NCBI GenBank assembly: GCA_965219415.1
Contig: CBDCNP010000002.1
Span: 1,376,001 to 1,440,000 of the forward strand
Source: Candidatus Marinacidobacterales bacterium
Lineage (GTDB): Bacteria; Acidobacteriota; Vicinamibacteria; Marinacidobacterales; DATDRI01
Length of the DNA: 64,000 nucleotides
Direction of reading: 5' to 3'
In this document: positions 17,825 to 22,281 of the stretch, one piece after another
Position numbering within the stretch: the stretch's first letter is position 1
How the letters are laid out: every line of letters starts with the position of its first letter
The notes under the pieces: model-generated
Databases searched by the model: none
The model's input: the letters and a program-made list of their open reading frames with translations, nothing else
What the model was told of the DNA's origin: nothing
Position numbers and translations under genes: made by a program

Positions 17825-17859
17825 GACAATTATTATTGTCGTACAATAATAATTGTCAA
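17824..17859 (-). promoter_or_regulatory. Perfect 16-bp inverted repeat (operator) overlapping a sigma70 promoter of the regulator
   Basis: TGACAATTATTATTGT-cgt-ACAATAATAATTGTCA (17824-17858). Minus strand: TTGACA (17859-17854), 16 nt, AATAAT (17837-17832), 7 nt, ATG. Confidence 0.75.
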
Positions 17860-17907
17860 AAAAAATGTAAAAATATTCTTACCCTATCTAAATCAACGTC
17901 TTGCAGG

Positions 17908-19269
17908 TCAGTCGACCCGAATTTCCAATGGGAGATCCTGCCGGCGGAAGAGGCAGACACCGTTCACATCCTCGCAGACATAGTAGAGGACATAGGGCGT
18001 CACCATGGTGACACTCGATGCGCTAGCCGGGCTCTTGAGCTCGAACTCGACCCTTCGTACTTCCTGGCTTACCGGCTCGGGTGGGATGGACACCGTCAAG
18101 TAGCGTTGGTCGACCTCCCACCCCTCCGGCACATTTACCCAAAAGACCAGATCGCCGGCTTCGTTGTTCCAGTGCGCCTTGATGTCTGGGTTGGGACGGA
18201 AGACGATGTGAACCCGAACCGACTCTCCCGGCACCATGGCCGTGGGCACCACGGTTGTCTCCGCCCGAATCAATCCTTCCTCGTCTCGGCGTATGCGGCC
18301 CCCAGGATCTGGCTCCTCGCCCAACGAATCGGTTGTCGGAAAGCTCTCCGCCGGGTAGGCAAACTCGGCCCCGCCGGGCTCAGCGCCTAACGGCAAAGGT
18401 GCCTCGCCTCTAGCTTCGATCTCCTGCCGCGCTTCCGAAACCCAATCGTAGAACGAGTAAGGCTTGGTGAGCCGCGGTCCATACTGCTGAATGCGGCGCC
18501 GCCAGATATATTGATTGGGGTCGATATCGAGTGCCCGGCCCCAATGCTCTACCGCTCTCGCGAAATCGTCGTCCCGTCGATAAGCCGAGTCGTAGCGCCG
18601 ACGGTAAGCTACTCCTAGTCGAAAGTGGATGAGGCCCGCACCTTTGGTGGCTAGGGCCCGGTGGTAAGAGTCGATTGCCTCGTCCACTCGTGAGACGTCT
18701 TCCCACAGAAATATCGCGTCTCCCGGCAGTTCGATGATCGCTTGCTGGCGCGCCTCCCTCTTAGGGTGCGAGCGCTCTAGGAACTCCCGAAAATCTTCTT
18801 CGCCCGGCTGAACCGCACGGATGATACCGTGCTCGTCGACGAGGAGAGTGATCGGCACCGCCGAGACCCCCAGACGGTTCAAGGAGTCGATCATGATCGG
18901 CCAGTCCATTCTTTTCCACTGCATGAAGAGACGGGCTCGATCCGGATGCTGCTCTTGGATGATCCCTGCCACTGCTATGTCGCCGCGATCGGCAGCCTCT
19001 ATTGTTCTCGCGTGCCACCCGGGCACGTGCTTCCGGCAACCCGCTCACCAGGAGGCCCAGATGTGGAGTACGAGCTTCTTTCCTCGAAAGCTCGTCACCG
19101 AGAGGCGGCTTCCATCTTCGAGGGACGGCAGAACTAAATGCGGGAAGGGTTCGCCGACCCGCGGCTCGTATTCGTCAGAATTAGCGGGCTCAACAGGTCC
19201 CGCGATTGTCGCCACAAGCAGAAGCAGGGCCGGGACGAAGACGTTTGGTCGTGCCATGGCTCGCCCCAT
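17908..19269 (-). CDS. Exported selenoprotein: TlpA/AhpC-TSA thioredoxin-fold domain (UxxC) plus TPR plus DsbD-alpha-like domain
   Basis: ORFs 19045-19269 and 17908-19026 are in frame and joined by TGA 19047-19045, reading HIWASW-U-AGCR. Signal peptide, cis-Pro motif SAVPITLLVDEHG, TPR, C-terminal YYVCEDVNGVC. Start is 19269 or 19257. Confidence 0.85.
19009..19047 (-). promoter_or_regulatory. Candidate bacterial SECIS element
   Basis: Downstream of the UGA: stem CGTGCC/GGCACG (19027-19022 with 19016-19011) and loop CGGGT; 23 nt separate the UGA from the loop. Confidence 0.65.
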
Positions 19270-19860: not shown

Positions 19861-22281
19861 ATGAATACGGTATGCCGAAGCATGTTGTTCCTTCTTGTCT
19901 TGCTCGGAGCTCTTGTCAATAGGTGTGTAAAAAAGTTCAGGCAGCAACAACCTTCGACGACTCCGTTACCCTGTCTCCATCTTCAAATCGAACGCCCAGG
20001 TGAACCTCTCGCATCAGCTCCGGTGCGTTGAGCCGGCGAAAATTCTTCTCCGCAACCAGAAGCAGTTTGAAGATTGTCGCAGTGGCGGACTCGACTTTCT
20101 TGAACCTTTTGGCCGCATCCGTTCTCAATCTCAGTGCAGCGAACGGTGACTCCACGACGTTGCTCGTGCGAAGGTGTTGCCAGTGAGGCTTGGGAAAGGA
20201 ATAGAAGCTGACCATCCGCTCCCAGTCCTCGTCAAGCACGTGCGCGGCCCCCGGAAGACCCTTGCGCAAGCACCAATCCTGGAACTTGGCCTTCTTCGTC
20301 TCGCACTCCTGCAGGCTGGTGGGGTAGGGGATCGCCGTCAACAGCGGCTTGGCCTGCGCCTGGTCCCTTTTCGGAATCCGGTCCAGTACGTTGAGGATTC
20401 GGTGGTTCCAGCACCGCTGCTCCTCAGCTTCTGGAAATACGTTTCGGGTCGCGGCCCAGATGCCGAGATGACCGTCACCGATCACCAAACGGGGACATCT
20501 CAGACCGCGCTTCTTCCGTCTCCGTAGCAGCGACGACCATGACGCTTCGGATTCTCGATGCCCGGCCTCCAGCGTCAGGACGATTTTCGTCCCGTCGGAC
20601 AGGCCACCAACCGCAACTAGCACCGCCGCCTTGTCCTTCTCAAGGCCGGCCTTCACGTACACGCCATCTACCCACAGGGACACGAGCTCGAGTTCGTCCA
20701 GTGGGCGAGCTAGCCACTGCTCGTACTCTCCCTGCCATTTCTGTTTCAGCCGCGACACCGTGCTGGGAGAAAGTGGAGCGTCCTCCCCTAGAAGCCCGCG
20801 GAGCGCCAAATCGAAATCTCCGTGAGCTAGTCCATGCAGGTACAGCTCCGGAATCAACTCGCTCACCGTTTCGCTCCGACGCTTGAACAGCGGAAGCACT
20901 CGACTTTCGAACCTCTCCTCCACGTCCCGTACTCTCGGCCGGCGAACCGTCACTGTGCCCACGCTCATCGTCAGCTTCCGAGGCTTACCGTATCCATTTC
21001 GATAGCCCGCCGTTGTGTCCACGGGCTTCCGTCTCTCCGATTTCTCACGCCCGAGAAGCTCCGTGACTTCGGCTACCATCAGCTCCTGCACCCAATCCTG
21101 GATCTCGAGCCTCGCCGCGAAGATGATTTCCGTTCTCGAACACCAGCAGCTTGGGAAAATATGATCCGCAGAGACAGGTTCGATTTCGTACTTCCCCAAG
21201 CCATGCGAAACAACAACATTGACCTCTGGATTCAAGTGATTCAAAGCTGGGACCCCGTGGACCTAGGGGCGACCTCCGGATATGGCGTTTTTGCAGACCA
21301 AGGCGGCGATCGCATTGAACGCGCTTTGTTTTCCTATAGCGATGATGTTCAAGACGCTGGTGCCTACGATATGGTCAAGGTAGTCGAAAAATCTGATCGT
21401 CGATTTGCAGACCTAAAGGAATTCGTGGCCAAGTATGATCCCAAGCGCATCGGCGTGAACTTCTCCGAAAGACTAGCCTTTGCTGATGGGATCACGCATG
21501 AAGACTACACGCACCTGAGCGATGCGATTGGCCCACAATTCGAGAAAAGAATTCTGTCAGCTGACATTCTGATCGTGGATTTCTTGTCGGGAAAGGTCAC
21601 CAGTGAATTGGTTCGTTTCGGCCAATCCGGTGAGGAAAGGTCCGAGTACCCGGAAAGGACATTTGGAAAAATCGTGCCTGGTGTCACCACCTTGAATGAG
21701 GTGCCAGGGAATGTATTTATGCGAAATCGGGACGGACGTGAAAGCCTCCAAGGTGATTACATCATTCAGCGGGGCGACCTCGTGAATACCCCCCTCGCGA
21801 GCGCCTACGTGCTGCGAGAAGGAGAGACTGAGCTACCGCCAGAGCACCAGAGAATCTGGGACCATGCGATGGTGGTCCGTGACATTCTACGGAGAAATAT
21901 CTTCCCAGGTCGCACTGGGGGAGAAACGCTGGCTATCCTAGCGGAAAAATTGGAAGAGGCGGGGTATCTCTATACCGATGAGGACCGTTACAACAGGAAC
22001 GGGGATCCCGAGAAAACCCAGGTTCATCTTGACCTCCATACGGAGGGCGTTGCCGATGAATTGATTGGCCCGAGGATTTCACCGCTGGATCCCGATTGGG
22101 TTCGGGAATTAAGGATTCCGCTCAATCATACTTTTACCCTGGAGTACATGGTCCACATGCCGGTGCCGGAGTGGGGTCGAGGAAAGCATATCTATCTCCC
22201 CTTCCACGATTCTGGGGTTGTCACAGAACGTGCGTCGAATTCCCTTATCCCCCTATTGACGGAATCTATCTCGTTCACTGA
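19861..22281 (+). pseudogene. Exported M24 (Xaa-Pro aminopeptidase-like) peptidase interrupted by IS256
   Basis: CAGGAG RBS plus signal-peptide start MNTVCRSMLFLLVLLG at 19861-19906. The body resumes at about 21120 (IRRDRFDFVLPQAMR..IDLWI, YDPKRIGVN, IIQRGDL, HTFTLEY). Another frameshift near 22230; stop at 22281. Confidence 0.7.
19907..21115 (-). mobile_element. IS256-family element (Mutator-type DDE transposase), 5' end missing
   Basis: GYRNGY, VRRPRVRD, LWVDGVY, VIGDG, QRCWNH, RTSNVVES. Terminal-repeat-like GAGCTCTTGTCAATAGGTGTGTAAA at 19907. No matching other end and no start codon. Confidence 0.9.

Follow-up and report, generated by a model that had tools for sequence, protein, structure and literature searches.

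In the 64,000-nt stretch of DNA analysed here (the window; C3:1376001–1440000 in the 8.05-Mb, three-contig genome G000 of a Candidatus Marinacidobacterales bacterium), two open reading frames (ORFs) on the minus strand share one frame on either side of a TGA codon. The upstream ORF has 74 codons (19269–19048), ends in H-I-W-A-S-W and is followed by the TGA at 19047–19045; the downstream ORF, of 372 amino acids (aa), is called from a GTG at 19026 and runs to a second TGA at 17910–17908. An earlier note on this DNA had proposed that the two are halves of one gene for an exported selenoprotein of roughly 450 aa, in which the first UGA stands for selenocysteine (Sec, U) at the attacking cysteine position of a thioredoxin-fold motif. 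The frame is indeed continuous, with the called GTG lying 243 nt (81 codons) from the first ATG of the upstream ORF. Read through, the whole gene (17908–19269) comprises 453 codons plus the stop, with one internal candidate Sec codon, residue 75 (19045–19047), at the first position of a U-x-x-C motif. The 453-residue product, close to the length anticipated, contains W-A-S-W-U-A-G-C-R-K-H-V-P-G-W-H, and orthologues can be aligned to it across residues 2–453.

The in-frame TGA is conserved far beyond this genome. Among 61 genomes of the same class (G000 included), 16 contain an orthologue match with 53–82% identity, and every match covering residue 75 carries one TGA. At 15 of 20 loci in related genomes the TGA lies between W-A-S-W and A-G-C; four loci are Cys paralogues (W-A-T-W-C-P-P-C and similar), and the last, L030, was unmatched by the motif pattern and has a TGA listed in its N-terminal piece. 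A scan of one genome per species returned 474 stretches encoding a relative, of which we analysed the best 80. The aligned codon is TGA in all 81 sequences (the window plus these 80), at 48–82% protein identity. The earlier note had asked whether homologues have Cys or TGA here: all 81 orthologues examined have TGA, and Cys is found in the paralogues and in the solved ResA/TlpA relatives. By their deposited labels, the best 80 comprise 49 Acidobacteriota (several classes), 14 Gemmatimonadota, three Verrucomicrobia, two Chloroflexota, four single others and eight entries named 'uncultured bacterium'. Nearly all are metagenome-assembled genomes, and the closest record (81% identity) is itself labelled Candidatus Marinacidobacterales. 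The family is present in at least 474 species-level genomes, mostly of Acidobacteriota and Gemmatimonadota. One relative, G014, has two copies of the gene (C4:561453–562703 and C2:319907–320995), with TGA in both. In two others the orthologue was matched in separate pieces (G010:C10:158503–159683 and G060:C2:3611750–3613118), which suggests frameshifts or assembly errors.

Database records read the locus differently, as if the TGA ended one gene, or broke one by a nonsense change, leaving a 74-residue peptide and a 372-residue TPR (tetratricopeptide repeat) protein that starts at GTG 19026. The best 120 of 2746 database proteins found at E up to 0.001 are 332–417 aa long and cover only 73–83% of the query. 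They align from directly after the TGA (V/M-P-G-W-H) and bear the names 'hypothetical protein', 'TPR repeat protein' or 'thioredoxin family protein'. Nearly all of the best 150 representatives of 50%-identity clusters likewise begin at query residues 77–130. Eight of the few longer representatives were inspected: four are full-length homologues lacking Sec, and four have unrelated or extended ends. In the ESM Atlas, the part after the TGA meets only unnamed TPR 'hypothetical protein' clusters from Planctomycetota and Verrucomicrobiota. Such truncated annotation is, however, what any Sec codon produces, because gene callers stop there, and it bears out the earlier expectation that standard annotation would miss the full gene. 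Two separate genes would also divide the thioredoxin fold within its active-site motif, and the GTG taken as the start falls within the 5′ arm of a conserved hairpin (below). Moreover, retention of the same TGA in 81 of 81 genomes from several phyla argues against a decaying pseudogene. We therefore consider that two genes or a broken gene can hardly be the right description.

The hairpin in question occupies 19011–19027 and has the form of the apical part of a bacterial selenocysteine insertion sequence (bSECIS), its loop beginning after a spacing of 23 nt from the UGA. Its arms are CGUGCC (5′, 19027–19022) and GGCACG (3′, 19016–19011), which form a GC-rich 6-bp stem around the loop CGGGU (19021–19017), just as the earlier note had described. 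The Fig. 2 legend of a 2026 review (PMC13188914) models the bSECIS with a loop of 3–9 nt, a stem of 4–16 bp, a G in the first two loop positions, a spacing of 16–37 nt from the UGA and a minimum free energy at or below −7.5 kcal/mol. With a 5-nt loop, a 6-bp stem, a G at loop position 2 followed by another G, and a free energy of −10.2 kcal/mol, the hairpin agrees with all four criteria published there. The note had placed the G at the start of the loop; the G is present as the model allows, but as the second loop base rather than the first.

Conservation at synonymous sites singles out the same few codons. We aligned the codons of 74 full-length orthologues, leaving out seven loci (L047, L056, L077, L099, L101, L108 and L111) in which no start codon could be placed 60–120 codons upstream, and compared the 60 columns in which the amino acid is conserved and four-fold degenerate. 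Entropy at the third position is lowest in three codons, all of the hairpin: V82 (0.00 bit; GTG in 74/74), G84 (0.23 bit; GGG in 61/63) and P83 (0.24 bit; CCC in 71/74). G77, in the spacer, follows with 0.79 bit, and the other 56 columns lie between 1.24 and 1.94 bits. The glycine codon of the hairpin is GGG, whereas nearby glycines are usually encoded by GGC. Base-pairing of the stem holds in 97.9% of 480 cells (80 distinct sequences), with the five inner pairs unbroken; when the 3′ partner was slid by 1–3 columns as a control, pairing fell to 16.7–63.8%. At pair 39/49, 76 rows have G-C, two have G-U and two have a compensatory A-U (L108 and L111, both labelled Chloroflexota), the last through a synonymous GTG-to-GTA change alongside a His-to-Tyr change. 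The loop is more variable, with CGUGU in 10 of 81 sequences and AGUCU, AGGCU and AGGUU also present. An RNAalifold consensus recovers a 5-bp core of the hairpin; a further 3-bp helix that it suggested (columns 25–27 with 33–35) was not adopted, having 16 broken cells against 10 double changes. By these comparative measures, the putative Sec-decoding signals are under purifying selection at the RNA level. This conservation, of synonymous sites and of pairing, is the decisive evidence for a SECIS; folding energy alone proves nothing.

The gene stretch is present in public sequencing runs of 12 studies, and we compared contigs from four runs of four studies with the window. Contigs of two runs (X1 and X3) contain the whole gene without a difference, and one of these runs may be the source of the assembly; contigs of X7 cover 18925–19269 with a single difference, at 18999. 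No letter other than TGA occurs at 19045–19047 in the contigs of the four runs, which answers the earlier note's question of whether reads would show TGC or TGT at these positions. In four metagenome runs, the depth over 19012–19057 is 4 to 13 times that over the rest of the gene: summed depths in this bin are 152, 43, 103 and 64, versus 5–12 in most other bins. The peak arises because short contigs of other organisms, with flanks that do not match the window, match just those 45 nt. Other members of these communities carry the UGA-plus-hairpin stretch almost letter for letter.

The genome encodes what Sec insertion requires. Searches of the genome found SelA (475.8 bits), SelB (375.8 bits) and SelD (328.3 bits, in a gene with its own in-frame TGA), and ARAGORN found one tRNA-SeC with the anticodon tca, so that all of selA, selB, selC and selD, for which the earlier note had recommended a search, are present. 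Of 61 related genomes, 58 have SelA, among them every one of the 16 with an orthologue, and its presence is hence consistent with Sec decoding without discriminating. Elsewhere in the genome, the gene for a formate dehydrogenase alpha subunit (FdhA, 1352 bits) contains one in-frame TGA, and two more thioredoxin-fold ORFs have a TGA at a redox position.

The first of these, at G000:C1:52012–53011 on the minus strand (gene at ~52.5–53.0 kb), is a second exported thioredoxin-fold selenoprotein gene, with the motif S-G-S-W-U-P-F-C and, 21 nt after the UGA, a hairpin with a GGC loop. It is followed directly by a gene, its start overlapping the preceding stop, for a signal-peptide-bearing protein with a DsbD_N domain and the sequence Y-Q-V-C-T-D-V-A-C. 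The pair looks like a two-gene module of a Sec-redoxin and an immunoglobulin (Ig)-like dithiol protein, the same pairing of modules as in the window protein, unfused. The second, at G000:C3:3431122–3431520 on the plus strand, is a peroxiredoxin (Prx)-like ORF with an in-frame TGA in F-T-G-G-U-T-A-E-C and a hairpin with the loop CGUGA 21 nt downstream of it, and is probably a Prx selenoprotein of the TxxU type. The hairpins of both genes resemble the CGGGU-loop hairpin of the window gene.

In the read-through protein, the N-terminus (residues ~1–30; 19180–19269) resembles a signal peptide by hydropathy, as the earlier note had suggested, with a basic stretch followed by the hydrophobic run VFVPALLLLVATIAG. 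A 12-residue segment with a mean Kyte–Doolittle hydropathy of at least 1.6 lies upstream of the thioredoxin core in 73 of 74 full-length orthologues, and the protein is therefore probably exported or membrane-anchored. We modelled the protein with AlphaFold2 on an 81-row alignment (22 read-through sequences plus database proteins). The model has a mean pLDDT (predicted local distance difference test) of 93.1 and a pTM (predicted template-modelling score) of 0.89, with pLDDT 54–60 for residues 1–30.

Residues 38–159 (18793–19158) form a thioredoxin-fold domain of the ResA/TlpA/CcmG type that includes the U-A-G-C motif. The Pfam Redoxin profile (PF08534) matches these residues straight across the TGA (1.9e-11, 44.4 bits, cut-off 26.6). 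In the model, a strand (65–71) gives way to a helix (76–94) with U75 at their junction; this strand/helix 1 junction is where thioredoxin-fold enzymes carry the attacking cysteine, and the ResA/TlpA relatives have Cys there, in agreement with the place that the earlier note had assigned to the UGA. The top Foldseek matches in the PDB are ResA, TlpA, CcmG and related thiol-disulfide oxidoreductases (2ls5, E 3.9e-9; 1st9_B, ResA, E 6.5e-9, TM(target) 0.78), and 4txv and 1kng are also returned. ResA, TlpA and CcmG (DsbE) are CxxC reductases that act outside the cytoplasm in the maturation of cytochrome c and of copper centres. The window protein shares with them the fold (TM to target 0.68–0.78), a motif of the W-x-x-W-C-x-x-C type and a predicted extracytoplasmic location. 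It differs in its low sequence identity (~20–25%), in having Sec for the attacking Cys, in ~290 extra residues and in the lack of adjacent cytochrome-maturation genes. We consider it likely that the protein acts as a thiol-disulfide reductase outside the cytoplasm.

The extra residues make up two further domains. A helical, TPR-like middle domain (residues ~182–300; 18370–18726) is suggested by the helices of the model, TPR scores and conservation. It includes the near-invariant stretch N-Q-Y-I-W-R-R-R-I-Q-Q-Y-G-P-R-L-x-K-P-Y-x-F-Y-D-W; TPR profiles stay below their cut-offs in the window protein (TPR_2 25.2 against 27, TPR_1 24.2 against 27.8), and most database homologues have precomputed TPR_11, TPR_1 or TPR_2 assignments. 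The C-terminal domain (residues 334–453; 17911–18270) is an Ig-like beta-sandwich, for which AlphaFold2 on residues 322–453 gave a pLDDT of 93.6. It matches a lacto-N-biosidase domain best (VIA-align Z 10.9, Foldseek E 4.9e-5), followed by complement MG domains and others, all of them generic Ig/macroglobulin-type sandwiches; a search against PDB sequences returned no match at E up to 10. The last beta-hairpin of this domain carries a cysteine pair, C432-x6-C439 (17953–17976), within Y-Y-V-C-E-D-V-N-G-V-C. Both cysteines are invariant in the 74 aligned orthologues, and 78 of the 81 rows in a larger alignment have them. The C-terminal two thirds of the protein, TPR-like and Ig-like with the second Cys pair, and the large size of the family go beyond what the earlier note had described.

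The four full-length homologues lacking Sec bear on the function of this second pair. In place of U-x-x-C they have SxxS (P0255), SxxC (P0237 and P0250) or CxxS (P0264, with its Cys at the position aligned with Sec), and not one of them keeps all four redox residues. A CxxC form is absent from the eight longer cluster representatives and the 81 orthologues examined.

These data also bear on a reading in which the protein is a Prx-like peroxidase selenoprotein whose C-terminal domains are structural or localizing and whose C-x6-C is a structural disulfide. The Pfam AhpC-TSA profile matches residues 38–159 as well (1.2e-9, 38.7 bits, cut-off 26), and peroxiredoxins appear lower in the list of fold matches. 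A cysteine pair in an extracytoplasmic beta-hairpin could simply be a stabilizing disulfide, and the C-terminal fold has generic Ig-like sandwiches as its only matches. The protein matches ResA, TlpA and CcmG best, however, and its active-site motif is W-x-x-W-U-x-x-C, not the T/S-x-x-C(U) of peroxiredoxins, for which the F-T-G-G-U gene elsewhere in this genome provides a genuine contrast. The loss of the full Cys set from all four homologues lacking Sec hints, for n = 4, at a coupling of the two centres. A peroxidase is thus an unlikely identity for the protein, and we favour a reductase.

We assign a probability of roughly 0.88 to the reading that the two ORFs are one gene, predicted to encode an exported enzyme in which a Sec-containing thioredoxin-fold domain is joined to two others; on the sequence evidence, it is very likely a genuine selenoprotein gene. 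Several observations weigh against this reading. None of the runs from the 12 studies that contain the stretch is on record as RNA. Export is predicted from hydropathy only. Conservation of gene neighbours gives no hint of a substrate: spurious overlapping frames aside, the commonest real neighbour family occurs at only 6 of 81 loci, which means that there is no operon partner. The folding energy of the hairpin is ordinary compared with shuffled sequences (z +0.41 for 66 nt, z −0.75 for 25 nt). Covariation is thin, with double changes in two of six pairs (three cells); the observed covariation measures are equalled in 9–21 of 500 column shuffles, and the stem of one orthologue, L025, contains a mismatch. 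Two runs from two studies (X7 and X10) lack one G of the GGG at 18756, at codon ~172, which reflects either a frameshifted copy in some strain or an error of assembly; this site lies in a variable linker, and the same two runs also have G>A at 18378 and 18489. Finally, the C-terminal domain scores 14.9 bits against a cut-off of 25 (E 0.028) in an end-to-end match to the Pfam DsbD_N profile (PF11412).

We dropped folding energy as evidence, since shuffled sequences fold equally well. The energy is ordinary for so G+C-rich a sequence, and the case beyond chance is made by the TGA and by synonymous-site conservation, not by energy. That ordinary energy, together with an Rfam search that gave nothing relevant (one chance match, E 9.4), would suit another decoding of UGA-75, by near-cognate read-through or recoding to Trp, Cys or Gly, with the hairpin as a stimulator or in some other RNA role. 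Yet the UGA stands exactly where ResA/TlpA relatives carry the nucleophilic Cys, which is the classic Sec/Cys pattern, in a genome equipped with the whole Sec machinery and with further canonical selenoprotein genes. The loop, G position, spacing and energy of the hairpin all agree with the bSECIS model, and two other selenoprotein genes in this genome have similar hairpins. TGA also terminates the window gene and others, and hence is not reassigned. Decoding of this codon as anything but Sec is accordingly most improbable.

From the unity of the gene, its decoding signals, its folds and its conservation, we infer SelB-dependent insertion, export, the direction of electron flow, the substrate and a relay between redox centres, as follows. 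SelB carrying Sec-tRNA(Sec) would be recruited by the hairpin 23 nt past UGA-75 and insert selenocysteine. Sec-75 would then be the exposed attacking residue of U-x-x-C at the start of helix 1 in a ResA/TlpA/CcmG-type fold, positioned to attack a substrate disulfide or another oxidized sulfur or selenium species, and Cys78 would resolve the selenenylsulfide intermediate. The TPR-like domain probably holds and presents a protein or peptide substrate. The C-x6-C hairpin probably acts as another redox centre, with either the Sec centre or a partner protein as its counterpart in electron exchange. Two hints speak for such a redox role of C-x6-C: the loss of the redox set from homologues lacking Sec, and the pairing of the U-x-x-C and DsbD_N genes on contig C1.

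A close precedent for two such centres is the relay of DsbD and ScsB, in which electrons pass from a thioredoxin-like domain to an N-terminal, Ig-like one whose beta-hairpin bears a pair of cysteines. The window protein resembles this system in combining a thioredoxin-fold domain with an Ig-like domain that has a Cys pair near a C-terminal hairpin, and its C-terminal domain has Y-x-x-C-x-D...C in common with DsbD_N. Unlike DsbD and ScsB, it is without a membrane domain, and its cysteines are spaced as C-x6-C rather than C-x4-C or C-x5-C. Profile evidence for the domain is weak throughout: only 4 of 74 family members match DsbD_N at E up to 1, and a profile–profile comparison (hhalign) with the 16 DsbD_N domains of relatives gave a probability of 0.67% and E 0.085. 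Given these Pfam and hhalign scores, we do not file the C-terminal domain under DsbD_N. Nor do the 50 best rows of Foldseek or of VIA-align for this domain include a DsbD chain. An intramolecular relay from Sec to C432/C439 is a tentative proposal. By analogy, the whole might work as a selenol/thiol relay in one soluble polypeptide, akin to the gamma-to-alpha step of DsbD minus the membrane part, with TPR-like substrate presentation and an obligatory Sec, but we regard this fuller scheme as speculative.

Sec-containing oxidoreductases of the TlpA/Prx-like kind are known. Table 1 of the review cited above (PMC13188914) contains several Sec-containing TlpA-, Prx- or redoxin-like UxxC families, and the window protein shares with them, as they are presented there, a thioredoxin fold, UxxC with Sec first, a UGA with a hairpin in the coding region, and a predicted redox function, often with export. 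The descriptions of those families are of proteins with a single domain, whereas the window protein combines a thioredoxin-fold, a TPR-like and an Ig-like domain with C-x6-C. For 'Prx-like 3', the accessible text of PMC2398784 names a single fusion, with a CxxC-bearing 'Unknown_3' domain that has three Cys. No description of a three-domain family was found in the available text of the review, the GOS paper with its supplements, Peng 2016, the deep-Sep paper or the full-text literature. The accessible part of Peng 2016 mentions neither redoxin nor TlpA, and the GOS 2008 supplementary sequences, whose long files may be incomplete, gave no match to three markers of the family. The term 'WAxxUGC' was likewise not found in the full-text literature.

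Among curated models, no NCBIfam entry reaches its cut-off; ResA, StoA, TlpA and DsbE match below threshold. The best NCBIfam match is NF041054 (WAxxUGC_long), which like the window protein describes a ResA-like selenoprotein with a motif beginning W-A-x-x-U. Its motif continues U-G-C, however, against U-A-G-C in the window, and 159 of 354 model positions were matched. The window protein was rejected as a member, at 62.6 bits against a cut-off of 300 and over model positions 85–243 only. In a search of the genome with this model the locus scored 56.3 bits, compared with 68, 57.5 and 57.1 for Cys-containing TlpA paralogues. It is possible that the family is already listed under a generic name, for example as 'Redoxin family protein' HEU0032618.1 (PMC13188914). 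What is new, by comparison with the published descriptions consulted, is the three-domain fusion, for which no CxxC counterpart was seen.

If the speculative relay scheme with an obligatory Sec is right, a redox module with chemistry that cysteine cannot replace is widespread in Acidobacteriota and Gemmatimonadota and has escaped notice through the truncation of its gene by every gene caller. The family is recorded only as 'hypothetical' or 'TPR repeat' proteins, without the catalytic domain, so that these abundant bacteria of soil and sea would have more redox capacity and a greater demand for selenium than is currently counted. The lack of a CxxC counterpart within the examined set would recommend it for studies of the reasons for keeping Sec, and the fixed fusion to a domain with a second Cys pair suggests a compact electron relay. 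The 45-nt UGA-plus-hairpin stretch, being nearly invariant, would serve well to seed a model for annotation.

Unrelated ORFs flank the gene in the window. Directly upstream, also on the minus strand, is a 435-aa ORF (19937–21244) whose predicted product resembles a transposase; no such ORF is conserved beside the orthologues. On the other side, the A+T-rich spacer between the stop of the gene and the ATG (17824) of the next ORF contains an inverted repeat (17826–17860), TGACAATTATTATTGT-ACG-ACAATAATAATTGTCA, whose 16-nt arms match perfectly around 3 nt and which abuts the start of that ORF. The predicted 210-aa product of the ORF resembles a winged-helix regulator, and the repeat looks, from its sequence, like an operator site.

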